A stretch of DNA of 53,725 bases, from NCBI GenBank assembly GCA_944388985.1, contig CALXKT010000001.1, positions 1 through 53,725 on the forward strand. Direction: 5' to 3'. Both the position numbers and the translations under genes were made by a program. Of this stretch, positions 315-49,918 are shown in pieces (position 1 is the stretch's first letter; each line of letters opens with the position of its first letter). This DNA comes from an uncultured Clostridia bacterium (lineage in GTDB: Bacteria; Bacillota; Clostridia; TANB77; CAG-508). The notes under the pieces are model-generated. The model did not search any database, was not told the DNA's origin, and worked only from the letters and a program-made list of their open reading frames with translations.

Positions 315-2105
315 TTATTCATCACTCTTCTCCTTTTTTTCAAGAGAAGTGCCAAAATAATTAACTACATCTTCCGAATTTCTGTCTGTAATTTTCTTTC
401 CAGTACACCTTTCAATTCCGTTCAAAATTTTTATTGCCCTGTCTATAATAAAATCTTCAAAATTATTATTATCTAATAAATCTGCATTTATCATATGTGA
501 AGAAATATAATATTTTAAGTCTTCCTTAGAAATATCTTTATTTCTAACAATTTTATTCATATAATCATTTGGTGATGTTCCGCCAATATATCTATTAGTT
601 GAAAAAAAGAGCGGTGTTTTATTTATTATAGAATTCCATTTCTTTTTGTCATAATTCATGTTGATACAATACTCTTGTGGAAAAATATGATGAACATCAC
701 TTCTTTCATCTAAATATGTTTGTACTCTCATTTCCATTCCATTTATCCAGTCGTATGCTCTATTACTCAATATTAAAGCCATTATTCCTTTATAAGCTGC
801 ACTATTTTTAGTTTGTAATCCTAATAGTCTCATTGTGTTAAAATTACAATCATTTATTGTTTTAGGCAACTCTTCTTTGCCTTTAATCCAATCATATACT
901 TGTTTTACATCTAAAGCATATCTAGTTTCATTTGCTCCACCATATAGTTCTCCAAATACTCCACACCAAAACCATTGCTTTATTTTTTCTTTTACTGATG
1001 AATTTTCAAATTCTTTATCTAATAAAGTACAAATTACCGCTAGTGGAATAAGTTGAGTTGAATATGGAATATCATATACAGAATATATATTCATTTCAAC
1101 TAATAATTTATAAGCCTTTTTAAATCCATTTATTAAATCCTCTTCATTTTTCTCATAATCTCTATAATCTAGATTTAATACATCTTTTCTTTTACAACTA
1201 ACAGTTATATTCTTTCGCATTGCTATTAAAAGTGTCATAGCAATTAAAAATGAAGTATTATCAAATTTTTTCAATGTTTCATATTGTTCAAAAATTTCTT
1301 TAACTTTATTCCAATGTTCTTTTAAGTCAAAATTATCTGCTGCAAAAGTCGCTGTTAATAACTCAAATACAGTTAATGGAACTCCACCTTGGTTTACATT
1401 TTCAAATACTTGACATACAGCCTCTTTAGGTGCTTCTTTTAGCACTTTAATAATAGGTATTCTATAATTTAATATAGGTTGTATTATATTAGTATCTATC
1501 TGTTGATATTCTTTAATAATATTGGGTTCAAAATTGTAATACTCTTGATATTTATTTCTCCAGTCATTAATTTCATTAGCTATTGTCATTTTATTAAATG
1601 GTATCATTTTATTTTTAAATTCTAATTCTTCCGTTGATAAATCTAGTAAAACATCTCTTCCTATATTTCCTCTTATTTGTTTATTTTCATCTACAGAAAT
1701 TATCGCGTCTATTCTATCAGTGGTAGTATTTAATGCTTTTTCTATATCAAGATAGTAAAACCTTTTTATTGCTTTCTTTTGATCTGACCAAGTACTAACA
1801 GCATTTTTTGATCTCATTGCTTGAAATGTTGATGTCATTCTCTGTTGTCCATCTAATATCATACTCTCTGGATTTTTATATTCATCTCCGCTACCTTCTA
1901 TATTTTTACATTTAAAACGAAAATCCCCGCCAGACTCTAATAGCATAATAGCTCCTACTGGATATTTCAGAGTTAAACTTGCTAATAATGCTTTTATTCT
2001 ATTGTCTTCCCATACCCATCCTCTTTGAAAATCTGGAAGTTGTATATCATGGTTTTCTACTTTATCTAATAAAGTTGATAAAAGTTCATCATCCGACTTA
2101 AACAT
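315..2105 (-). CDS. GmrSD-family (type IV, modification-dependent) restriction endonuclease-like protein; DUF262 N-domain plus DUF1524 His-Me-finger C-domain
   Basis: ORF 315-2123. N-terminal DUF262 signatures LPDFQRGWVWE and LDGQQRMTS. C-terminal DVHHIFPQEY...NSIINKTPL (DUF1524/HNH-like). The likely start is the ATG at 2105, 6 nt after GGAGG; the track start at 2123 is a TTG. Confidence 0.8.
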   Translation of the reverse strand: MFKSDDELLSTLLDKVENHDIQLPDFQRGWVWEDNRIKALLASLTLKYPVGAIMLLESGGDFRFKCKNIEGSGDEYKNPESMILDGQQRMTSTFQAMRSKNAVSTWSDQKKAIKRFYYLDIEKALNTTTDRIDAIISVDENKQIRGNIGRDVLLDLSTEELEFKNKMIPFNKMTIANEINDWRNKYQEYYNFEPNIIKEYQQIDTNIIQPILNYRIPIIKVLKEAPKEAVCQVFENVNQGGVPLTVFELLTATFAADNFDLKEHWNKVKEIFEQYETLKKFDNTSFLIAMTLLIAMRKNITVSCKRKDVLNLDYRDYEKNEEDLINGFKKAYKLLVEMNIYSVYDIPYSTQLIPLAVICTLLDKEFENSSVKEKIKQWFWCGVFGELYGGANETRYALDVKQVYDWIKGKEELPKTINDCNFNTMRLLGLQTKNSAAYKGIMALILSNRAYDWINGMEMRVQTYLDERSDVHHIFPQEYCINMNYDKKKWNSIINKTPLFFSTNRYIGGTSPNDYMNKIVRNKDISKEDLKYYISSHMINADLLDNNNFEDFIIDRAIKILNGIERCTGKKITDRNSEDVVNYFGTSLEKKEKSDE

Positions 2106-2324
2106 ATTATACCTCCAAGCCAACTAACAAAAATTATTTATTTCAAGAAATATTGTATCATAAATCAACAATTTATTCCATATTTTACTATTAATTCTAT
2201 TATATCACTTATTTTTATATGTAATTATTTTATAAGAGAGCCATTTGCTATCTTTATATCTATCTTCCGAATGTCCAAATTTATCATCATACATAAAATT
2301 CTCAATATTCACCACTAATTTCAC

Positions 2325-3779
2325 CTATCCCCCAAGTTCCAACTCATCAACATCCATTATCTTACCCGTCAAATAATAATGGTAAGCGAGTTTCGCAGGC
2401 AACATCCTCACTTGAATATTTTCAAGTCCAATGCCCTTTAGCATGTCTAGCGAAACCTCTCCTTTCGGGATAACCTCTTCTTTTTCTGTGGGCATTAAGA
2501 AACAGTTTTTTATGCATTGTATCTCATGGTCTGCTAAAAAATCTTTGTAAGCAAGCTGATATAAATATTGCTTTGTGATAGAATCTATGCCCGGAACGCC
2601 TCTTATTACTCCGCCTTCTTCCAATACCGTATTGTAATATTTAGCGTCGAAGATGATAAATTGGCACCTGCCATTCTTTTCATAAATGGATATAATATCT
2701 GGAAGCAATGTATCCGATGACCTTGCGTTCGGCACACTCCATAAAGGCTTTTCAATAATGTCTACCAATTTGTCCGTTTTATCATATTTTGCTTTCAGCT
2801 CCGTAGGCAATTCTAGCTTTGCAAGAGGCGTGTTTAATTTATTATCTAAAATAGCTGCACAAACCTTTTCCCAAACAAGATGAAACGCATTCGTTCCAAA
2901 CATTGAAAAGCATTCCAAATCATATAAATGTCCATTTTTATTTACATATGCATACATTGCTTTTAATAAAAGTTGCTTTCTTGTATTGAATTGTACATTT
3001 AATTCATTTTCGATGCGATACAGAATATATTCCGTGTCTCCCAAACTATCTATCTTTTCATCCGACAGCTCTACCTCTGTTATTTCGAACAAATCTAATA
3101 AATCTGCCTTTTCTAATTCCTTTGAAATTTCTGATAAAATAATTTCGTGCAGTTTTTTGAAAAAATCCATTTGATTTTCCACATTCTTCTTTGTTTTGAG
3201 CTCTAGGTAGTATGGTTTATTATTTTGTAATAACGCAAATATTTCATTAATCGTTTTATCCCAAAATATTTCTCCTTCTCCATTTGTTTCGAGAATATCA
3301 TTGGTGTTTGTATATAATCCATACTCGTAATAATCCTTAAGCAAAAACAATTGTAGCGCTAATAAATTAAATTCTCTTGTGTCACTGTCTCCATTATACA
3401 TATGGATTATTTGCTCTTTCGAATTATATTTTTCAAGCACCTTGATAATCTGCTTTAATTCCTTTTTTGGCTCTTGATTGCTTAATATATATTTTGGATA
3501 ACATTTTAGCACTTTATCTGCAATAATAATGACTCCTACAAATGTAAATACATAGTAACAATCCTCATTATCCATGTCAATTGGCATAGCTTCAATATCC
3601 GCTTCCAACAAATCGCTCCTGTTTTTTTGAGCATCATTGGCTTTTACCAGTTTTACGATGCCATACTCTTTTAGCTTTCTTAAAAGTGCCAATAATGTTT
3701 CCTCAGATTTTTCTTCTAATAATTCTCCTAACTCTCTTTGTGTATATCTTTTCTGTTCCTGTATATATTTCGATAACAT
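2325..3779 (-). CDS. McrC-like PD-(D/E)xK nuclease subunit (LlaJI.R2-like)
   Basis: 484 aa. The C-terminal nuclease motif FIIFDAKYY followed by ITKQYLYQ is as in McrC. It lies immediately downstream of the McrB-like gene, with the SD GGAGG overlapping the upstream stop, which suggests translational coupling. Confidence 0.75.
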   Translation of the reverse strand: MLSKYIQEQKRYTQRELGELLEEKSEETLLALLRKLKEYGIVKLVKANDAQKNRSDLLEADIEAMPIDMDNEDCYYVFTFVGVIIIADKVLKCYPKYILSNQEPKKELKQIIKVLEKYNSKEQIIHMYNGDSDTREFNLLALQLFLLKDYYEYGLYTNTNDILETNGEGEIFWDKTINEIFALLQNNKPYYLELKTKKNVENQMDFFKKLHEIILSEISKELEKADLLDLFEITEVELSDEKIDSLGDTEYILYRIENELNVQFNTRKQLLLKAMYAYVNKNGHLYDLECFSMFGTNAFHLVWEKVCAAILDNKLNTPLAKLELPTELKAKYDKTDKLVDIIEKPLWSVPNARSSDTLLPDIISIYEKNGRCQFIIFDAKYYNTVLEEGGVIRGVPGIDSITKQYLYQLAYKDFLADHEIQCIKNCFLMPTEKEEVIPKGEVSLDMLKGIGLENIQVRMLPAKLAYHYYLTGKIMDVDELELGG

Positions 3780-3791
3780 TCATTATCCTCC

Positions 3792-5393
3792 TTAAGCAAT
3801 ATCTCTATCAAATTCTTTGCTGATATCGATATCAAATACATATACACCTTTTTCGTCAAAATCCTTACATAGCGACGAATACCTTATATTATCATCATTT
3901 GTTGCAAATAAAGCTTTTCTTTTTTGTTTTGCAGCATCTTCAAATAGATACATAAGTACTTTGCTTTTGAAAACTTGTATAAATAGTTCATCACTTTCTA
4001 ATGCTTTTGTAGCGATAAAATAAGGGCCAAGCAATTTATCTTCATTAATTTTTAGGGAACTCAGCTTATTGTTGATTGCTTTTCTTAACTTGTTCCATTC
4101 TACATTACGCTTAAACTCTCCCTTTCCAAGCACAACATATTTGCTGGCTATTCCTTCTTCTTTTTCATCTATTCCTAAGTAATCAAAATTCCATCTTCTT
4201 TTAAATGCAGTGTCCATTGGAAATACTCCTTGGTCGGCACTATTCATGGTCGCCCAAATAAACATATTGTCTGGAATAGCTATCTTTTTGTAATCTTCTG
4301 GACTTCCTCCTAATTCTTGTGCCAAATACTTTTTCATATCTTCTGAAGCTTCGATAGGATACTCGCTTACATGATTCTCATCACGGTCTAATAATTGGAA
4401 GATGTCGCCAAAGACAGCAGCCACATTTGCTCTATTAATTTCTTCTATCATTAATAAATATGGCTTAATATGATTCGTTCTGCTATTTTTTATAGCCTCC
4501 ACATAGATGCGCATAAATGGTCCTGGCACGTATTGATAGGTTATGCCTTCTTCCTCTCCCTTTTTATAAGGTACCGGTTTATAGGTTCCTACAAAATTTG
4601 CATAAGAATAATCTGGATGGAAAGTAACACGCTCATAGTTTTCTTCGTTTCCATCTTTTAATAATATTTTACGGTCTTCATTTAATCTATAGCTCTTTCC
4701 TGTTCCAGGTGCTCCAAAAACAATACGATTTCGACTAAATTCACTGACATATCCTGTTTTATAATTTGGGGCTATTCCCTCATAAAGCAATTCATCAACA
4801 TGTACAAGCGTATTGGTTGGCTTTTCATAGAATTTATTATTTAATTCTTGTAAGTTGTCATTCACATCATCTGGTAATATTCCATAGTATTCATACTCAA
4901 ACAGCTCTTTTTTCTTTAAGATAATTAAATATGCACCAACATGTAGCATCTTTCTAAATTTTATAAAATTATCGTCATCATAAGTTGGTAATGACATTTG
5001 AATTTGGTCTGCTTGTCCTGCTCTTTTACTTCTTACAATGGATACATAGGTTTTTAATTTTCCACTTTGAAATTCCATTTCCTCTGTTAGCACATCATGG
5101 TTTATATATTTTAGATTGCTTTCTGTTAACATCACAGGTATTTGCATAATAAAATATTTCTTCCTATTTTGCAAATTATGTATAAAGTAACCATCTGACC
5201 TAAAATATGGGAATATATCCATCTGGTCCCCGGTAATCGCAATATGGGTTTGGTTTGTTGTCCTATTAGCATCTAGTGTATTGCTTGCTTCCAATTTCTT
5301 TACTATTAATCCATCATAATCTGCTGGATTAATATCCGTTCCTAAATCTTTTAGTAGCTCTTTTACAGAATTAATTGCTTCCTCAAAATTCAT
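3792..5393 (-). CDS. McrB-like AAA+ GTPase restriction subunit with a distinct N-terminal DNA-binding domain (LlaJI.R1-like)
   Basis: Walker A GAPGTGKSY, Walker B LLMIEEINRANVAAVFGD, McrB signatures WATMNSADQG and FKRRWNF. About 220 aa of N-terminal domain are not assignable by eye. Confidence 0.8.
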   Translation of the reverse strand: MNFEEAINSVKELLKDLGTDINPADYDGLIVKKLEASNTLDANRTTNQTHIAITGDQMDIFPYFRSDGYFIHNLQNRKKYFIMQIPVMLTESNLKYINHDVLTEEMEFQSGKLKTYVSIVRSKRAGQADQIQMSLPTYDDDNFIKFRKMLHVGAYLIILKKKELFEYEYYGILPDDVNDNLQELNNKFYEKPTNTLVHVDELLYEGIAPNYKTGYVSEFSRNRIVFGAPGTGKSYRLNEDRKILLKDGNEENYERVTFHPDYSYANFVGTYKPVPYKKGEEEGITYQYVPGPFMRIYVEAIKNSRTNHIKPYLLMIEEINRANVAAVFGDIFQLLDRDENHVSEYPIEASEDMKKYLAQELGGSPEDYKKIAIPDNMFIWATMNSADQGVFPMDTAFKRRWNFDYLGIDEKEEGIASKYVVLGKGEFKRNVEWNKLRKAINNKLSSLKINEDKLLGPYFIATKALESDELFIQVFKSKVLMYLFEDAAKQKRKALFATNDDNIRYSSLCKDFDEKGVYVFDIDISKEFDRDIA

Positions 5394-5453
5394 AATTTAT
5401 CACATTCCTTTCTAGATTGTTTTAAATCCTTATCTTTATATCATAATTTTTAT

Positions 5454-5598
5454 TGCTTCTGTGGGCCGTCTTTTTTTCTTTTAGTTGGAGACTTAAGGTG
5501 GGGACCGACAAGTTTACAAACTGTTAAGCGAAGCTTGTACAGTTTGTACGCAGTTGGGGGTCGTAAACTAAAAGAAAAAAAGACGGTCTGCAGAAGCA
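5454..5598 (+). ncRNA. Unclassified structured hairpin element, copy 1 (invariant core in a copy-specific 33-bp closing stem); strand and RNA-versus-DNA role uncertain
   Basis: 5454-5486 pairs with 5566-5598 (30 Watson-Crick plus 3 G:T, no bulges). Core blocks are CTTAAGGTGGGGACCGACAAG (5492-5512) and ACAGTTTGTACGCAGTTGGGGG (5539-5560). Inner stem is TACAAACTGT/ACAGTTTGTA. No ORF. The same architecture occurs at 24395-24550 and 49679-49882. Confidence 0.45.
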
Positions 5599-5609
5599 TA
5601 ATCCCATAA

Positions 5610-7061
5610 TTATTCAATATTTTGCTCCTCTTCTAAACAACGTTTAATAACCTGTGCAATTGTTTTACTTAATAATGGCGGTACAGAATTTCCTATTTGC
5701 ATATAGGTTTTTGTGTAAGAGCCTCTAAAGAAATAATCATCTGGATAGGATTGCACTCTTGCGGCTTCCCTTGGCGTTAGCCCTCTAGCTTGTGTTGGGT
5801 GAATATACATGTTGCAATCAAATTTCATATGTGCTGTAATTGTTTTGCAAACCTTATTCTCCTCTAGCTTAAAATATTTATCTTTAAAAATATCGTTTCT
5901 ATTTTTATATGGCATAATATCTGCTATCTTAGGATCATCCGATTTATCTCCTTGTTTTAGTCTCCTAAAAATTTCGATATCCCTTTCATTATTATACCTA
6001 GCCTTATGATTAAAAATCAAGCCACAGGTTTTGTTTTGATTGATAATACTTATATACTCATTTTGATTTTGCCTATTATTTTTTTCAATTTTCTTTCCGG
6101 AATCGATTGTATCTCTTTCTGTTGCATTTTTTTCTTGTAGTGCTTTTAACTCTCTAAGCCCATATAACGCATCTTTTAAAACAAATTTCGGTATTGTTAG
6201 AGCTGTTTCTTCAATTTGCTTAAAGATTTCTTCATTATCGTATCCTACATTATTTCCGATAAATATTAATCTTTCTCTATTTTGTGGCACGCCATAATCT
6301 TTTGCATTTAGAATTTTGCAAGATACAGTGTAGCCAATTTTCTCAAAATCTTCTATTATTTGGTTTGCCACTGAATACATGCCTTTTACATTTTCCATTA
6401 CAAAAAATTTAGGTTTTACTAAATCTACCACTTTCACATAACTTTTATATAATTTATTTCTTGGGTCATCGATTACTCGTTGGCGATTCGCCATGCTAAA
6501 TCCTTGGCAAGGTGGTCCTCCCACTACGATATCAATTTTGTCAAATCTTTTTAATTCGTTTATCTTATCCATAATGTTATTAATATCGTCGCAAACTATA
6601 TTTTCTCTTGGTATTTCTGGATGATTATGGGAATAGGTGTCCACACAGCATTCTTCTATATCGTTTGCAAAAGCCACCTTAAACCCAGCCTGCACAAACC
6701 CTAAGGATAATCCTCCTGCTCCGCAGAATAAATCAATTAATGTTGGTGCATCATTTTCTACCTTATTATTTCTATTTTGTATATTGTAATTGCAATATTT
6801 CGCCACTGGACATTCGGCACATTTTTCTTCTTGACAAAATTTTTTATATAGCCATGTTAATTTATTTTCTTTTTCGTCAAATTCATACTCTCTAAAATAT
6901 TGCATTCTTTCCTTTAAATAAGCATTTGTGTTCTCTGCGCATAAATAATTTAATGCATTAAAAGCATATTCTTGGTTTGGATATTCCTCTTCATATAATT
7001 CGGAAAGAATACTACAAATTTCTTTTGCATCATTTTCATACTTTTTCGTTGTTTTAGTCAT
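5610..7061 (-). CDS. DNA (cytosine-5) methyltransferase with a Cys-rich N-terminal extension of about 100 aa
   Basis: Motif I DLFCGAGG, motif IV GGPPCQGFS, motif VI ENVKGM, motif VIII QNRERLIFIG, motif X GNSVPP. An 8-nt overlap with the upstream MTase gene (ATGACTAA) suggests translational coupling. Confidence 0.9.
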   Translation of the reverse strand: MTKTTKKYENDAKEICSILSELYEEEYPNQEYAFNALNYLCAENTNAYLKERMQYFREYEFDEKENKLTWLYKKFCQEEKCAECPVAKYCNYNIQNRNNKVENDAPTLIDLFCGAGGLSLGFVQAGFKVAFANDIEECCVDTYSHNHPEIPRENIVCDDINNIMDKINELKRFDKIDIVVGGPPCQGFSMANRQRVIDDPRNKLYKSYVKVVDLVKPKFFVMENVKGMYSVANQIIEDFEKIGYTVSCKILNAKDYGVPQNRERLIFIGNNVGYDNEEIFKQIEETALTIPKFVLKDALYGLRELKALQEKNATERDTIDSGKKIEKNNRQNQNEYISIINQNKTCGLIFNHKARYNNERDIEIFRRLKQGDKSDDPKIADIMPYKNRNDIFKDKYFKLEENKVCKTITAHMKFDCNMYIHPTQARGLTPREAARVQSYPDDYFFRGSYTKTYMQIGNSVPPLLSKTIAQVIKRCLEEEQNIE

Positions 7062-11711: not shown

Positions 11712-11727
11712 GTTTTCCTCCCTTATT

Positions 11728-11816
11728 CCAATTTGGGGACAGGCGTTTTTCTTCACTTTTTTCCATAAAAAGGCCTGTCCCCAAATTGGAAAAAAGTGGA
11801 GAAAAAGGCCTGTCCC
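11728..11816. repeat. GGGAC-core palindromic repeat cluster, subfamily B (CCAATTTGGGGACAGGCGTTTTTCTTCACTTTTTTCC units)
   Basis: The full unit at 11728-11764 is followed by oppositely oriented partial units (GCCTGTCCCCAAATTGG at 11772-11788; GGAAAAAAGTGGAGAAAAAGGCCTGTCCC at 11787-11816). The cluster ends 16 nt from the adhE start codon. Confidence 0.85.
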
Positions 11817-18700: not shown

Positions 18701-19777
18701 ATGAGTATTGAATCAGATTTAAAAAAGGATGGAATTACCGTTGTTGGTAAGTTAGATACATTAAGCGTAAATACCATTTCGAGGAACATAGCAGAAAAAA
18801 TTTGTAGGACTTTTCCAGAACAAAACTTTATTTTTCAAAATCTTTTTATTGCATTATCTAGAATACCAATGTATATCGCAGACATTCCAGCGGGATTTGC
18901 GGAAGCTACTTATTTTTATAAAAATTCTTCCATGTATTTCAAGCAAGGCTTATCATTAGAGGAATTAGAAAAGTTTGCAGTACATGAGTTTATTCATTAT
19001 TTGCAAGAGATTAAAGATAAAAAAGGACGTTTAGTAAAACTCGGTTTGTGCGATTTTGGAGATTTAAAGGTTTGTGGCATGGGCTTAAACGAGGGAGCTG
19101 TTCAACTTATGGCTTCCAAAGCTTTGGAATCACCAGAAGAAATTGTAAAATATTATGGCATTTCCTTTCCTACTATTAGCCCATCTTATTATCCACTTTT
19201 ATGCAATTTAGTAAACCAGATGGCTTACGTAGTGGGAGAAGAAACACTTTATGATAGCACTTTTTATGGAACAGATGCTTTTAAAGAGCGTTTTGCCAAT
19301 TTGTGTGGAGTAGACAATTTCTTTAAGATTCAATCCAATTTAGATAAAATTATGGAAGCAGAAGAAAAAGCGATAAAACTAAACAACAAGTTAATGAGTG
19401 ATGATGTTGAGGGTAACAAAGCACAAAAAATTGCCAAGAAAATAGAAGCTTATAAAACAAAAATCGGAAAACTTTTCTTTGAAACGCAAAATTTAATTTA
19501 CACATCTTACTTTAACACACAATTTACTAAGCTTTCTACTACCGCTGATATTGATGAATATCGTTTGCGTTTATACAATTACAAAAACTATATGGGAATT
19601 TCGGACAATTATTCTGACTTTAACGAATTTTACATTAATAAAATGATGGATTTAGATAATAAATATGAAAGCATTATGAATAATACTGGTTTAGTAGTAG
19701 CTAATAATTCGACAATTGCTAGATTTTTCCGCAAAATAAGAGCAATTTTATCGGCTACCGTAGAACTAAAAAAATAA
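18701..19777 (+). CDS. Hypothetical protein with an HExxH motif (possible metallopeptidase)
   Basis: 358 aa. The only motif seen is AVHEFIHYLQE. SD AAGGAG is upstream. Confidence 0.45.
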   Translation: MSIESDLKKDGITVVGKLDTLSVNTISRNIAEKICRTFPEQNFIFQNLFIALSRIPMYIADIPAGFAEATYFYKNSSMYFKQGLSLEELEKFAVHEFIHYLQEIKDKKGRLVKLGLCDFGDLKVCGMGLNEGAVQLMASKALESPEEIVKYYGISFPTISPSYYPLLCNLVNQMAYVVGEETLYDSTFYGTDAFKERFANLCGVDNFFKIQSNLDKIMEAEEKAIKLNNKLMSDDVEGNKAQKIAKKIEAYKTKIGKLFFETQNLIYTSYFNTQFTKLSTTADIDEYRLRLYNYKNYMGISDNYSDFNEFYINKMMDLDNKYESIMNNTGLVVANNSTIARFFRKIRAILSATVELKK

Positions 19778-19785
19778 ATATAGTA

Positions 19786-19857
19786 AGAGCTTGAACAAAA
19801 GGGACACTCCTTTTTGTTCAAGCTCTTAAACGTTTAGGAGTGTCCCTTTTGTTCAAA
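19786..19857. repeat. GGGAC-core repeat pair, subfamily A, between convergent genes (probable bidirectional terminator)
   Basis: AGAGCTTGAACAAAAGGGACACTCCTTTTTGTTCAAGCTCT is followed by TAAACGTTTAGGAGTGTCCCTTTTGTTCAAAC, the inverted copy. Confidence 0.8.
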
Positions 19858-19872
19858 CTTTTAATTCAGTCA

Positions 19873-21165
19873 TTATTTTTTGCGCAGAACAAGTGCGTCC
19901 CCAATTGCGCAAGCAGTATCTCTTCCGGCACGAGCCGCCCAAGCTACTGTGGCTTTATCTCCTGCCAAATCTCCTCCTGCATAAATTTTTGGATTGGAAG
20001 TTTTGTGATTTTCGTCTACTTCTATATATCCCCATTTATTTAGTGCTAGTCCTAATTTTTCTACAATTTCTTTTTCTGGACTTGAGCCTACTGCCATTAC
20101 AACATAATCCATATCCATTACATAGTTACTGTTTTCTATGTTAACTGGTACTTCTCTTGTTTCTCCCTCTTTTTTTACTAACTCGGTTCTAATACATTCT
20201 ATTTTTTCAACTTTTTTGTCTCCTAAAATTTTTACTATATTATTCTGAAATAAAAACTCGATACCCTCTTCTTTTGCTTCCGCAATTTCTTTTGTCTCTG
20301 CTGGCATTTGTTTTTCTGCCCTACGGTAGATGACGGAAACCTTTTCTGCTCCTAGTCTTTTTATGGTTCGTGCGCAATCCATTGCCACATTGCCACCGCC
20401 AATTACGGCTACTTTCTTACCTACATAAGATGGATGTTTTCCTGTTTCTAATAAACGATTTCCTCCATAAACGCCTTCTAAGTCTTCTCCCTCAATATGC
20501 ATTTTTGCAGGAATATTAGCTCCAAATCCTAAGAAAATAGCATCATAATTGTTTTCTAGCTCTTTTAAATCTAAATTTTTTCCTAGCTCTTTGTGATATT
20601 CTACTTTTATTCCTAAGCTTAGAATGGCTTCCACTGTTTTTTGCAATACGGATTTTTCCAATCGAAATTCTGGTATTCCGTGGGATAAAATACCGCCTAG
20701 CTCTCCTTGTTTTTCAAAAATGGTAACTTCTGCTCCACTTCTTGCTAAAAAAGCACTACAAGTAAGACCAGCAGGACCGCCTCCTACCACTGCCACTTTT
20801 TTTCCTTTTAATTCGTCTGTCTTTTCTAACTTTTCATACCACTTGTTTTTTAGCGCCTCATCAAAAACATATGCTTCAATCTTTCCTATTTGAACTGGCT
20901 CTCCTTTAATTCCGCGTACACAGCTTCCCTCACACTGCTTCATATGTGGGCATATTCTTCCGCAAACGCTTCCTAGAACTGTGGTATTGCTTAATATTTT
21001 GTATGCCTCTTCTACCTTTCCCTCTTTTACTTGCTTTATAAAGGCTGGTATGTCATTATTTAGTGGGCAACCTTTATTACTACAAGGTTTTGCAGGGCAA
21101 TTCAAGCAATATTCTGTGGCTTTTTGTATTTCTTCGCTTATTTTCTCATTCATCTCTGTGTTCAT
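19873..21165 (-). CDS. GltD-like NAD(P)H-dependent FAD oxidoreductase with N-terminal Fe-S cysteines (glutamate synthase small-chain / SudA family)
   Basis: Cys cluster CLNCPAKPCSNKGCP, two dinucleotide folds VAVVGGGPAGL and VAVIGGGNVAMDCAR. The likely start is MNTEMNEK (ATG 21165). Confidence 0.8.
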   Translation of the reverse strand: MNTEMNEKISEEIQKATEYCLNCPAKPCSNKGCPLNNDIPAFIKQVKEGKVEEAYKILSNTTVLGSVCGRICPHMKQCEGSCVRGIKGEPVQIGKIEAYVFDEALKNKWYEKLEKTDELKGKKVAVVGGGPAGLTCSAFLARSGAEVTIFEKQGELGGILSHGIPEFRLEKSVLQKTVEAILSLGIKVEYHKELGKNLDLKELENNYDAIFLGFGANIPAKMHIEGEDLEGVYGGNRLLETGKHPSYVGKKVAVIGGGNVAMDCARTIKRLGAEKVSVIYRRAEKQMPAETKEIAEAKEEGIEFLFQNNIVKILGDKKVEKIECIRTELVKKEGETREVPVNIENSNYVMDMDYVVMAVGSSPEKEIVEKLGLALNKWGYIEVDENHKTSNPKIYAGGDLAGDKATVAWAARAGRDTACAIGDALVLRKK

Positions 21166-24237: not shown

Positions 24238-24394
24238 GGTTTTCCCTCCTGTTTTTCAATTTTTACTTTTTCTTTATGCATTTCTATCGATTTCGTACTT
24301 AACTATTGTATCATTTTTTAGATGCAAAGGCAACTAATTTTTGGTCGTTTTCTTGAACAAAAGTTACTGGATAGTTACAATTCACGGTTGTTTT

Positions 24395-24550
24395 AATCGT
24401 AGCAATGTATATTTTAAATTTATGTTGGAGTGCTTAAGGTGGGGACCGACAAGTTTACAAACTGTTAAACGAAACATAAGTGGAGTTTATACAGTTTGTA
24501 CGCAGTTGGGGGCCGGAAACATAAATTTAAAATATACATTGTTACGACTT
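24395..24550 (+). ncRNA. Unclassified structured hairpin element, copy 2
   Basis: A 29-bp closing stem: 24398-24426 pairs with 24518-24546 (28 Watson-Crick plus 1 G:T), extended by AAT/ATT-like pairs with one bulge. Core blocks are identical to copy 1 (36 nt at 24433-24468 and 22 nt at 24491-24512). The apical hairpin differs. Confidence 0.45.
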
Positions 24551-24600
24551 TTTAGAACAAGCTTTGAATGGTAACACTGACTAATGAAGAAAAAATGCAT

Positions 24601-26284: not shown

Positions 26285-26325
26285 TACTTTCACCTCTTTC
26301 TCTGTTTTTTCAATTTGGACGTTAG

Positions 26326-26453
26326 GGACACTCTTTTTTGTCCAAGTTTTTGGTGAACGTTGGGGACACTCCTTTTTGTTTAAGAACTTGAACATTTAGG
26401 AGTGTCCCTTTTGTTCAAGTTCTTGAACGTTTAGGAGTGTCCCTTTTGTTCAA
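26326..26453. repeat. Four tandem subfamily-A GGGAC units of about 35 bp (two forward, two inverted)
   Basis: GGGACACTC at about 26335 and GGGGACACTCC at about 26362, then GGAGTGTCCC at 26398-26407 and at about 26434. Each is flanked by TTGAAC/GTTCAA words. The cluster overlaps the addB stop codon (26450-26452). Confidence 0.85.
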
Positions 26454-29914: not shown

Positions 29915-29932
29915 ATTTTTCTCCTTTTTAGT

Positions 29933-30152
29933 CCAATTTGGGGACAGGCGTTTTTCTCTACTTTTTTCCAGTTTAGGGACAGGTCTTTTTCTCTCATTTG
30001 CTCTCATTTTCGCGAAATTAAGATATCAATTTTCGTCTTATTTTTCCATTTTTGCTCTAGTACTACTTTTCAATTGCTTTATTATTTCTTCTTTACGAAC
30101 GGGTGTCCCAATTTTGGAAAAAAGTAGAGAAAAACGCCTGTCCCCAAATTGG
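29933..30152. mobile_element. MITE-like 220-bp element with perfect 37-bp terminal inverted repeats (subfamily-B GGGAC units)
   Basis: 29933-29969 (CCAATTTGGGGACAGGCGTTTTTCTCTACTTTTTTCC) is the exact reverse complement of 30116-30152. Degenerate second units lie just inside each end. There is no ORF and no obvious target-site duplication. Confidence 0.6.
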
Positions 30153-30155
30153 AAT

Positions 30156-33893: not shown

Positions 33894-33917
33894 CCTGTTA
33901 GCTCCTTTCTTTGCTTT

Positions 33918-33987
33918 ACTTGAACAGAAGGGACACTCCTATTTGTTCAAGCTTTTGGACAAATAGGAGTGTCCCTTCTGTCCAAGT
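33918..33987. repeat. GGGAC-core repeat pair, subfamily A (probable rnc terminator)
   Basis: ACTTGAACAGAAGGGACACTCCTATTTGTTCAAGC is followed by TTTTGGACAAATAGGAGTGTCCCTTCTGTCCAAGT. The two halves carry matching variant bases (AGAAGGG/CCCTTCT, CCTATTT/AAATAGG). Confidence 0.8.
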
Positions 33988-33994
33988 ATCCAAG

Positions 33995-37442: not shown

Positions 37443-37682
37443 TTCTTTTGTGTAGTATTTAATTTTCCTGTTTAAAATATAATTTCACACTCCTTTTTGT
37501 GACGTGACAAAGTTAATTATACCATATATTCTATGCAATTTCAAATTAAATATTCTATTTTCTCGCAAATTTGGCAATTTTCAGATATTTCGTCGATTTT
37601 TGATTTTGTTTTATCTCATGGTTTTCTCACTTTTTCTCGTTTTTTCTTGTTTTTTCTCGTTTTTTCAGCTATTGACATTCGA

Positions 37683-37752
37683 CCTTGAACAAAAGGGACA
37701 CTCCTTTTTGTTCAAGCTCTTGAACGTTTTGGAGTGTCCCTTTTGTTTAAGG
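37683..37752. repeat. GGGAC-core repeat pair, subfamily A (probable terminator of the P-type ATPase gene)
   Basis: CCTTGAACAAAAGGGACACTCCTTTTTGTTCAAGCTC plus TTGAACGTTTTGGAGTGTCCCTTTTGTTTAAGG, 3 nt from the ATPase stop codon. Confidence 0.8.
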
Positions 37753-37754
37753 TT

Positions 37755-44603: not shown

Positions 44604-44698
44604 AGTTTAGGGACAGGCGTTTTTCTTCACCTTTTTCCAATTTAGGGACAGGCCTTTTTCTTCACTTTTTTCCAATTTAACGCCTGTCCCTAAATTGG
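44604..44698. repeat. GGGAC-core repeat cluster, subfamily B (two tandem units plus one inverted partial unit)
   Basis: AGTTTAGGGACAGGCGTTTTTCTTCACCTTTTTCC, AATTTAGGGACAGGCCTTTTTCTTCACTTTTTTCC, AATTTAACGCCTGTCCCTAAATTGG. The cluster ends 19 nt from the smc start codon. Confidence 0.85.
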
Positions 44699-46727: not shown

Positions 46728-47427
46728 ACACTCAAACATTAAATGTCGCTACCATAATAAAGTGGTAGCGACATTTACTATAAAACTGATATTAATCTCC
46801 AGCTAAAACCAATATACCTAACTTATAACCTAATATACATTGCTGTATAAATAAGCTAATCGCCAAATATACCAATCATTCGCTCGACTACAAATGCACT
46901 CATAATAACCATATTCGTCCTCATGGGACTAATAACAACTATTATTAAATACAAGAATAATCTTAACTTTGAATTTATTACCTATGGTTCAACCACACAT
47001 TATATTTATTATCACTATCTAACTTAAGTAAAAATAGAAATAATACTCTATATAGCCATAACACAAATAATAAACTCTCATCGCCGACATAACATAATAT
47101 AAGGTCATTACACCATGTTATCTCTTTGCTCGAACACGATAAAACATACTAAAATCTACATCCTATCGCACTCTTATTTGAACTAATATCAATCTTATAC
47201 TAGTATTATGTACAATGTTTTTTTTATTATTCATTTTTTATTGTTTTTTTGAAAACCAATTTTTAGTAGTTGTTTTTTTTCTTTTTTTATAGTATGATAA
47301 CATTAGAATTAATTTAAGGTTACCATTTACGGCTTTCGAAAAGTAACTTGTATATAAAATGTCTTTCGATAATGGATATTCTATAGAAATACATAAACTA
47401 TAATGGTAACTACACAGGAGAAAAAAG

Positions 47428-48360
47428 ATGAAGAGTGAAATTTTTGATTTTTATAGTCCCATTAATTTAAAATCGTATAACTTAGATAAAACCATGCGTT
47501 ATCAACTTGATGTTTTAGGCAACTTGGATTTTTTTACTCGCAGACATAGTGAAAATGTAGCAAACCTTTCTTGTAGAATTTGCGAATATTTACATTGTAA
47601 TAAAAATTTTACTATATATTGTACAATATGTGCTTATTTACATGATATTGGTAAATTATTTATTCCTTCTAAAATTTTAAATAAACCTGGAAGATTGACA
47701 GATGAAGAATTTGAAATCATGAAAACGCATACGACAAAAGGGTATGAAATGTGCATGAAAGATTTAAATTTAAGACCTTATGCTATTGGTGCTTTAGACC
47801 ATCATGAAGCTTTGAATGGAAGTGGATATCCGAATGGAATAACAAAAATTCCAATGGAAGCACAAATTATTCGTGTTGCGGATGAGTATGATGCCATTGT
47901 TACCAAAAGGCAATATAAGACACACGTTAACATATCTGAATTATTAAAAGATTTGATAAAAGATGCTCAACCAGATCCTAAATTCGTTGCTTTGGATCAA
48001 CTTGCTCAAAATTCTAAAGTTGGAAAAATTAATAAACGTGTTTTAAAAACATTGTTTAAGGTTGTTATTGATGATATTTTGTATGAGATTAGTTGTATTA
48101 CGGATTATTTGGATTATTTAAAGGATAACATTAAACGTTTTGAATTAATTTGTAAATATGCTGATAAAGCGAAAGAGGCAAAATCTGACAAAAAGAAAAA
48201 TTACTACCGAGAGGGAATGAAAATGCTATTTCAAGCAGATGAGACTTTTGAAAATTATTTACAAGTATATGAAGATTACAAAAATGCTCTCCAAATTAGA
48301 ACAGAGAGAATGGATAAACTTTATAATGAGATTAAAATTATTAAGAAATTGGAAGTTTAG
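47428..48360 (+). CDS. HD-GYP domain protein (putative cyclic-di-GMP phosphodiesterase)
   Basis: HDIGKLFIP and HHEALNGSGYPNG motifs. SD AGGAG lies before the ATG. Confidence 0.8.
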   Translation: MKSEIFDFYSPINLKSYNLDKTMRYQLDVLGNLDFFTRRHSENVANLSCRICEYLHCNKNFTIYCTICAYLHDIGKLFIPSKILNKPGRLTDEEFEIMKTHTTKGYEMCMKDLNLRPYAIGALDHHEALNGSGYPNGITKIPMEAQIIRVADEYDAIVTKRQYKTHVNISELLKDLIKDAQPDPKFVALDQLAQNSKVGKINKRVLKTLFKVVIDDILYEISCITDYLDYLKDNIKRFELICKYADKAKEAKSDKKKNYYREGMKMLFQADETFENYLQVYEDYKNALQIRTERMDKLYNEIKIIKKLEV

Positions 48361-48362
48361 CA

Positions 48363-48440
48363 GAACTTGAACAAAAGGGACACTCCTAAACGTTTAAGAA
48401 CTTGAACAAAAGGCAGTAGTCCCTTTTGTTCAAGTTCAAG
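48363..48440. repeat. GGGAC-core repeat pair, subfamily A, between convergent HD-GYP and mazF genes (probable bidirectional terminator)
   Basis: GAACTTGAACAAAAGGGACACTCCTAAACGTTTAAGAAC plus TTGAACAAAAGGCAGTAGTCCCTTTTGTTCAAGTTCAAG, followed by TTTTT. Confidence 0.8.
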
Positions 48441-48443
48441 TTT

Positions 48444-48791
48444 TTAATCTAGCCCAAAGCTTACACCCAAAGCATTATTCACCTGCGATATAATCGTTTC
48501 ATCATCAATATGTCCTATTTTTTCTTTTAATCTACTCTTATCAATCGTTCTAATTTGTTCTGCTAGTACCACTGAATCTTCTTTTAATCCATTATTTTGT
48601 GAGCCTATTTCTATATGTGTTGGTAATTTGTTTTTTCCGGTTTGTGATGTAATTGCTGCTGCGATTACCGTAGGGCTATGTTTATTTCCTACATCATTCT
48701 GGATAATGAGTACTGGTCTTACCCCACCTTGTTCTGAACCAACTACTGGACTTAAATCCGCATAAAACATATCTCCTCTTTTTATTACCAT
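48444..48791 (-). CDS. mazF: MazF/PemK/EndoA-type endoribonuclease toxin
   Basis: [36 protein letters not shown]... From memory it is near-collinear with B. subtilis EndoA (NdoA). The start ATG at 48791 is 8 nt after AGGAG. Confidence 0.9.
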
Positions 48792-48871
48792 ATTCTTCAC
48801 TCCTACTGTTTGTATATTTAAGGCATTATTTTTAATATATTTTAGAAATCAGTTTGAAATAACGAAAAGAG

Positions 48872-49641: not shown

Positions 49642-49918
49642 GTTACTAGATAATAGTTTATTAGGTTATATCTTGCCCAAATGCAGTTAGTGGATACTTT
49701 TCATTTTTATTTACGACTCAAGGTGGGGACCGACAAGATACAGGCTGTGGAAAAATTACTCTTGAAGAAAAAACTTGTTTTTTCTTCAAGTAGAAATAGG
49801 CAGAACCCCTGTAATTTTTACTACAGACTGTTCGATGTTGGGGGGAGTAAATACAAATGAAAAGTACCCACTAACTGCATTTCAAAATAAAAAGAATGAT
49901 AAACCATTATCTTGTAAC
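49642..49918 (+). ncRNA. Unclassified structured hairpin element, copy 3; a 277-bp foldback with the conserved core, flanked by a 9-bp direct repeat
   Basis: Outer arms 49642-49663 / 49897-49918 (19 Watson-Crick plus 1 G:T of 22). Main 36-bp stem 49679-49714 / 49847-49882 (34 of 36 paired). Core AAGGTGGGGACCGACAAG at 49720-49737 and GTTGGGGG at 49837-49844. Direct repeat GTGTTGCCT at 49633-49641 and 49919-49927. Confidence 0.5.

Follow-up and report, generated by a model that had tools for sequence, protein, structure and literature searches.

A probable family of miniature inverted-repeat transposable elements with a separately constrained, invertible central cassette in uncultured Clostridia

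Background

In this study, we report a dispersed family of long hairpins in uncultured Clostridia, which is probably a non-autonomous DNA transposon (miniature inverted-repeat transposable element, MITE) of an undescribed family, with a central core that is separately constrained. It is a new family of a kind of element that is already known, and a literature search for the sequences of the element and for MITEs of Clostridia returned nothing specific.

The stretch of DNA analysed, referred to here as the window, comprises 53,725 nucleotides of an uncultured Clostridia bacterium (assembly GCA_944388985.1, contig CALXKT010000001.1, positions 1 to 53,725 of the forward strand). A preliminary description of the window had noted three loci in which one core is enclosed by stems of different sequence, and had proposed either a fixed cassette carried in exchangeable or programmable stems or a structure under selection.

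Results

Three hairpins with a common core

Three occurrences of the 18-mer AAGGTGGGGACCGACAAG, all on the + strand, were found in the window (at 5495, 24436 and 49720), against about 0.01 expected by chance. Each occurrence lies in a very stable long hairpin, which confirms the common architecture reported earlier. Fold energies of copies 1, 2 and 3 were -78.3, -62.7 and -86.1 kcal/mol, with z-scores against dinucleotide shuffles of -12.8, -9.3 and -10.5, respectively. The features of the three copies are the following.

5454..5598, + strand: copy 1, whole hairpin, with 33-nt arms at 5454-5486 and 5566-5598
5492..5512, + strand: copy 1, 5' core CTTAAGGTGGGGACCGACAAG
5513..5552, + strand: copy 1, inner stem and apical hairpin region, with GCGAAGC at 5528-5534
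5515-5524 and 5539-5548, + strand: copy 1, inner stem TACAAACTGT/ACAGTTTGTA
5553..5560, + strand: copy 1, 3' core GTTGGGGG
24366..24373, no strand: copy 2, left target-site duplication ACTGGATA, 6/8 identical to its right partner
24374..24575, + strand: copy 2, complete canonical copy of the putative MITE, 202 bp
24374-24387 and 24562-24575: copy 2, terminal inverted repeats GTTACAATTCACGG and CTTTGAATGGTAAC
24397-24426 and 24518-24547, + strand: copy 2, arms
24433-24453 and 24505-24512, + strand: copy 2, 5' core and 3' core
24576..24583, no strand: copy 2, right target-site duplication ACTGACTA
49679..49882, + strand: copy 3, long-form hairpin, with arms at 49679-49714 and 49847-49882
49717-49737 and 49837-49845, + strand: copy 3, 5' core and 3' core
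49761..49790, - strand: copy 3, terminator-like perfect palindrome followed by a T-run, on the strand of the flanking genes

Copy 1 proved to be built as first described, with 30 Watson-Crick and three G:T pairs and no bulge in its 33-nt arms, and with the same core strings, inner stem and GCGAAGC loop; its pairing may extend to 5450-5602. The reported identity of copies 1 and 2 over 36 plus 22 nt of core was also reproduced. The apical domain of copy 3 (about 100 nt) matches those of four other copies (L021, L059, L088 and L092). Both copy 1 and copy 3 lack a canonical terminal repeat and a clear target duplication; a possible direct repeat around copy 1, 7/8 identical (CATAATTT at 5442-5449 and CATAATTA at 5605-5612), was spotted by eye only. 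A PemK-family toxin near copy 3 (48444-48800, - strand) is suggested by the precomputed annotation of an identical neighbour (L133, PF02452).

Distribution of the family

The 18-mer was used to scan one genome per species and was found exactly in more than 113 stretches among the matches listed. Fourteen of the listed stretches, from unrelated, mostly GC-rich genomes and two viral contigs, are chance matches and have no 3' core. The remaining matches belong to at least 23 metagenome-assembled genomes (MAGs) whose labels read uncultured Clostridia or Clostridium sp. and which come from the human gut, the Hadza, deer rumen and comparable sources, with up to 16 loci per MAG among the matches listed. 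Both cores lie within 260 nt of each other in at least 94 copies, and the exact 18-mer is present in more than 100 hairpin copies. Plasmid, phage and IMG/VR collections gave no match except chance ones in coding sequence. As far as was sampled, the family is confined to a group of uncultured gut and rumen Clostridia.

No conserved open reading frame was found: a small GTG-start frame in the core and frames of 9 and 23 codons are not maintained across copies. The earlier statement that no RNA family is recognisable was borne out, as a search of the window at the Rfam gathering thresholds gave no match, and a permissive one over copy 1 (E<=10) gave only noise.

In several samples, short-read contigs begin or end within the element (the end of L117 and the starts of L122 and L131-L134). 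Such breaks are expected of a core, of about 33 nt, that is repeated genome-wide, and the family thus fragments the assemblies of these species.

Termini, target duplications and empty sites

Canonical copies, copy 2 included, are 190-204 bp long. From the outside inwards, such a copy has the 14-bp terminal repeat GTTACAATTCACAG, then a short loop that is asymmetric, an AT-rich closing stem of 30 bp and a GA-rich internal loop; its centre comprises the conserved core (a stem P1, the 10-nt bulge AAGGTGGGGA and the pairing CCGAC/GTTGG), the inner stem and a variable apical hairpin.

The terminal inverted repeat (GTTACAATTCACAG ... CTGTGAATTGTAAC, 14 bp) was identified in 37 copies, among them copy 2. 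The 8-mers directly outside it agree at six or more of eight positions in 18 of these 37 copies, seven of them perfectly, against 3 of 111 shifted controls. The same termini also bound derivatives from which the core has been deleted, as well as unrelated small elements that have no core, such as one in L007 with a perfect AGCATGTA duplication.

Comparison of related genomes revealed filled and empty sites. A copy in locus L043 is missing from L065 (flank identity 98.6%), and the same relation holds for L024 against L066 and for L051 against L024, the last pair with a remnant of one terminus. L130 has no element at the site of copy 2, and nine other assemblies have one there. Elements at some orthologous intergenic sites belong to different subfamilies, indicative of repeated insertion or replacement. 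The features by which a MITE is recognised, namely small size, lack of coding capacity, terminal inverted repeats, a duplication of fixed length (8 bp) and dispersed copies with presence and absence, were all found. Membership of the core in an IS or MITE had been named in the preliminary description as evidence against its own reading, and the terminal repeats and 8-bp duplications are evidence of this kind, though the MITE is an undescribed one and not one already known.

The element would be inserted by a transposase acting in trans, with duplication of 8 bp of the target. A parent transposase was sought as terminal-repeat pairs 0.5-4 kb apart and as multi-copy open reading frames in about 0.9 Mb of loci (8-kb tiles of draft MAGs), and none was found; the search yielded only a MITE pair around a 604-aa gene in L041, plus ordinary orthologues. 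In that locus, two MITE copies, taken together with about 15-24 nt of flank, make up direct repeats of 240 bp (3803-4042 and 5909-6149) on either side of the gene. The related genome L014 is without the second copy, and the arrangement could be a recombination-mediated insertion or a composite.

Several further observations concern termini and interrupted copies. The terminal repeat of copy 2 holds an inward-facing -10-like TACAAT, which together with a flanking TTGAAC makes a 9/12 promoter-like site reading into the copy (window 24353-24381); it may be a relic of the transposase promoter of the parent element. An element of about 89 bp at window 47319-47407, with ends GTTACCATTTACGG ... CTATAATGGTAAC, has termini of the MITE type and no core, and resembles a 100-bp element in L007 (1952-2051). 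Near positions 1-110 of L066, a unit bounded by GGGAATTTGACA...TGTCAAATTTCCC lies inside the apical loop of a copy; the inner stem of a copy in L028 contains an insert of about 100 nt (about 1880-1980); and a MITE in L030 is interrupted after its left arm (about 3100-3420).

Arms of the element

The arms have a median length of 55 nt and a maximum of 92 nt, and pairing usually runs well past the 30-bp closing stem, so that the whole element is a palindrome of about 200 bp. Family-wide, the closing stems follow an AT-rich consensus and fall into subfamilies that recur at non-orthologous sites in different MAGs. Copy 2 belongs to one of these, its arms recurring in many other genomes, and for the arms of copy 1 no other match was found in the window or among the examined loci, except at the same locus in other samples. 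The statement that the stems are unrelated therefore holds roughly for the three copies in the window and fails across the family.

Arm mismatches are strand-neutral family-wide (86 G.T against 71 A.C), which is the expectation for a DNA palindrome whose two arms undergo concerted evolution. The arms are probably halves of a long DNA palindrome that co-evolve by arm-to-arm recombination or templated repair, a process that would keep complementarity while the sequence drifts into subfamilies. In three distant members (L012, L015 and L068), the same core is enclosed by perfect arms (40-59 nt) of completely different sequence, which is unexpected and argues against reading the family as a decaying MITE.

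Conservation, covariation and strand of the inner module

The inner module is far more conserved than the arms. Deviations from the 18-mer were found in 6 of 118 profile matches, five of them at one base, the G of CCGAC, a core conservation that is inflated by the use of the exact 18-mer to gather the copies (a query such as TTGGAGTGCTT-N18-GTTTACAAACTGT would collect copies without requiring it). In the consensus fold, GCUU pairs with GGGC and CCGAC with GUUGG, and AAGGUGGGGA is left as a bulge of 10 nt, beyond which come the inner stem and the apical hairpin. In copy 1, CTT and the base before it pair with GGG and the base after it (5558-5561), the bulge AAGGTGGGGA is at 5495-5504 and CCGAC pairs with GTTGG.

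Conservation of pairing, which the preliminary description had proposed to check in additional copies, was found, with compensatory changes in 31 of 45 pairs of the whole hairpin. In the 21 pairs of the inner module, 97.9% of cells are paired and double changes occur at seven pairs. The covariation score of the module was 0.145, against 0.054 in shuffles, and was exceeded by 0 of 500 of them; all slid controls scored lower, collapsing. DNA palindromes can give the same covariation counts through arm-to-arm conversion. One isolated covarying pair in P1 (columns 48-135; GC 54, UA 7, AU 2, CG 1) lies outside any arm homology and is not explicable in this way, so that pairing itself must be under some direct selection.

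One-sided changes in the inner module are of the G.U type in 23 sequences, at nine pairs, against one of the A.C type, and in the arms 60 against 55, these counts being of sequences and not of independent events. Three invariant G.U pairs of the module exist on the plus strand only. The three G:T pairs in the arms of copy 1 had been taken as a hint of a plus-strand RNA; given the strand-neutral mismatches of the long stems, they are not a family-wide signal, and the plus-strand bias is confined to the inner module. It is likewise for the inner module that the earlier suggestion of a structure under selection survives; the suggestion of programmable stems is rejected.

An alternative 3' core, GCCAAAGGGCC in place of GTTGGGGGCC, accompanies an unchanged 5' core in about 10 copies of several arm subfamilies (L024, L028, L045, L049, L054, L058, L074, L084 and L104 carry it); nearly every difference is a transition (T to C, G to A). 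No consistent promoter or terminator was found in or around the core, where only the terminator-like palindrome of the long form and the -10-like TACAAT of the terminal repeat were seen.

Orientation and position

Relative to long flanking reading frames, the core is antisense to both in 56 copies and sense in 11 (n=67, about 84% antisense). Where the outer frame could be scored, the core is antisense in a ratio of 20:3 and the outer frame in a ratio of 15:8, partly by hand assignment, and the orientation bias therefore belongs to the core. GC skew and gene direction coincide in nearly every 8-kb locus, so that effects of transcription and of replication are inseparable. The median distance from the upstream stop codon to the hairpin end is 19 nt, and the next start codon is much further away. 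Since the best-folding strand is antisense in about 84%, it is usually absent from the mRNA of the neighbouring genes, and there is a tension between the strand that folds best and the strand that these mRNAs contain.

The same body of evidence bears on whether the inner module is a functional structured RNA of the plus strand, cis-regulatory or small, of use to the host or to the element, which the MITE frame merely spreads. Covariation that includes a pair beyond conversion, the excess of G.U-type changes (23 against 1) with three plus-only invariant pairs, the retention of the core across subfamilies and in distant MAGs with unrelated arms, and an orientation bias tied to the core and not to the outer frame all speak for such an RNA. 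We nevertheless consider it unlikely, because it has no Rfam match and no consistent promoter or terminator around the core, its best-folding strand is antisense to the neighbours in most copies, about 10 copies combine the same 5' core with a different 3' core, and the G.U counts are of sequences, not independent events. A version in which the closing stem would present the bulge AAGGUGGGGA, or the C-rich loops of the other strand, to the ribosome, a Shine-Dalgarno sequence or a protein is doubtful to the same degree.

Under the MITE interpretation, the inner module would be under a separate and stronger constraint than the arms, probably as a single-strand fold of plus-strand polarity that serves the element itself, and may be what is left of a cis-acting or leader region in the parent element. 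Host selection would then remove or flip those copies that put the G-rich, Shine-Dalgarno-like plus strand into the mRNA of neighbouring genes, which could produce the antisense bias.

In-place inversion of the central cassette

Loci L039 and L087 have identical flanks and arms, and their central segment of about 95 bp is exactly reverse-complemented. The loop between terminus and closing stem is asymmetric, so that the orientation of the cassette can be scored against the outer frame; it is flipped in about 9 of 23 scored copies (about 39%, partly assigned by hand). Flipping is not fast, as copy 1 has a single orientation in all five other assemblies that carry it and copy 2 in all nine others that are filled. 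Apparent flips at L018/L071 and at a site A of L039/L087 were rejected, these being elements of different subfamilies at the same intergenic site. The arm-to-arm recombination proposed above would also flip the central cassette, and could by the same process explain the inversion between L039 and L087.

Such an inversion raises the question of an inverton, that is, a phase-variable switch in which a site-specific recombinase acting on the arms would turn a downstream gene on or off (here the restriction half of the LlaJI system). Both orientations at one locus were indeed seen, between the two genomes of L039 and L087, the inversion is exact and in place between orthologues, about 39% of scored copies are flipped relative to the outer frame, and the terminator-like hairpin of the long form works in one orientation only. 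Known switches of this type, such as those of Clostridioides difficile (cwpV and flgB, with RecV) and the invertons of gut bacteria, occur at single-copy loci, are served by a dedicated recombinase and show mixed orientations in the same population. The present family resembles them in having a segment flanked by inverted repeats in both orientations, with a possible action after transcription start, and differs in having more than 100 copies, no linked recombinase and a fixed orientation across five to nine assemblies. No promoter-like site was found within the cassette, no recombinase reading frame recurs near or adjoins the copies among the examined loci, and the length of the arms (30-90 bp) suffices for ordinary recombination. 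An inverton is thus a very unlikely explanation.

Other palindromic repeats and rejected readings

An extragenic palindrome of the REP/REPIN type, moved as single-stranded hairpin DNA by a RAYT (Y1 HUH) transposase, would likewise be intergenic, hairpin-forming and close to upstream stop codons, its orientation bias could follow replication direction, and the genome does have other families of palindromic repeats. The 8-bp duplications and terminal inverted repeats point instead to a cut-and-paste or copy-in mechanism of the DDE type; moreover, REPINs conserve their arms, vary the loop and make no target duplication, whereas here the centre is conserved and the arms vary. We regard this origin as highly improbable.

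Copy-specific guide stems around a fixed cassette, suggested by the unrelated look of the three closing stems in the window, can be dismissed with near certainty, since the stems form subfamilies common to different genomes at non-orthologous sites, the arms of copy 1 match nothing else examined, and stem mismatches favour neither strand. Three further resemblances were dropped: a retron msr-msd, because no reverse transcriptase is present (the neighbours are methylases, an McrB-like protein, a peptidase, Dus and similar) and the element is multi-copy; IS200/IS605, because target duplications are present; and CIRCE, with only a half-site-like match.

Two other palindromic repeat families were observed in the window. 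Units of the second, like CTTGAACAAAAGGGACACTCCTTTTTGTTCAAG, often form inverted doublets in the manner of REPINs (window 18574, 19768-19879, 26312-26452, 33917-33988, 37682-37753 and 48360-48440); its motif has 10 matches in the window and occurs in only six of the examined sequences, the window included. The third, TCCAATTTGGGGACAGGCGTTTTTC..., has arms of up to 50 nt (window 11723-11816, 29932-30153, 44609-44681 and 46677). The string GGGAC is common to the core and to the second and third families.

Copy 1 in the LlaJI-type operon

Copy 1 lies between the methylase and nuclease halves of a restriction-modification operon. The M-M-R1-R2 context given earlier is correct, because the neighbours are two C5 methylases, an AAA_5/McrB-like protein and RE_LlaJI, and so is the gap of 216 nt between the M2 stop (5610) and the R1 start (5393). 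The distance from the M2 stop codon to copy 1 is 8 nt. An operon without the insert, a comparison that the preliminary description had recommended, was found in a distant LlaJI-type system whose R1 is 69% identical and in which the M2 stop and the R1 start overlap (ATGA), leaving no spacer. Copy 1 thus breaks up a junction at which the two genes are coupled elsewhere. The insert is identical in all close relatives. Just downstream of the operon, a GmrSD-like nuclease (window 315-2123, - strand) is suggested by the precomputed annotation of an identical neighbour (L120, PF03235).

On the MITE interpretation, copy 1 would be an atypical copy without canonical termini that landed 8 nt after the M2 stop. 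It would put a perfect hairpin of 145 nt into the polycistronic mRNA and leave R1 uncoupled from M2, and it might, as proposed earlier, set the M:R expression ratio by lowering R1 relative to the methylases.

Discussion

The family is closest in kind to other dispersed bacterial repeats. Correia elements (NEMIS) of Neisseria are short, abundant, intergenic, non-coding MITEs that duplicate TA, form a hairpin when co-transcribed and have functional sites in their interior. The present elements are likewise short non-coding MITEs by their terminal inverted repeats and target duplications, abundant, intergenic and able to form a long hairpin. They differ in the 8-bp duplication in place of TA, in their size of about 200 bp with arms of 30-90 nt, and in a centre that is more conserved than the arms and invertible; the host phylum is another one and no sequence similarity was found.

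The bcr1 repeats of the Bacillus cereus group and the ERIC/IRU repeats of enterobacteria are dispersed intergenic imperfect palindromes with compensatory changes, which are thought to be mobile and act on transcripts. The present family shares with them the dispersed intergenic palindromes and a fold preserved by compensatory changes, and differs in sequence, size and target duplication. To our knowledge, no orientation-biased invertible central cassette has been described for either.

A bolder reading of the inner module, to which we give little credence, is that it is an undescribed functional nucleic-acid structure, spread by the transposon and flipped in place by recombination between its own long arms, which would act as a heritable, orientation-dependent modulator of operon polarity or translation. 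It could possibly offer a C-rich loop for anti-Shine-Dalgarno pairing or Rho loading in one orientation, and mimic a ribosome-binding site in the other. In the LlaJI operon, such an element would set the ratio of methylase to nuclease.

The present analysis explains a striking hairpin as a mobile repeat, one that breaks the assemblies of these gut Clostridia and that tools seeking inverted repeats would flag as an inverton. The family is a clean example from nature of how the arms of a long palindrome can stay perfect as their sequence drifts, and the central cassette is conserved and invertible, has covariation support and is biased in orientation. If the cassette acts on transcripts, the transposon would seed dozens of operons with a switchable regulatory hairpin, and one such operon is a restriction-modification system, in which the balance of methylase and nuclease is important.
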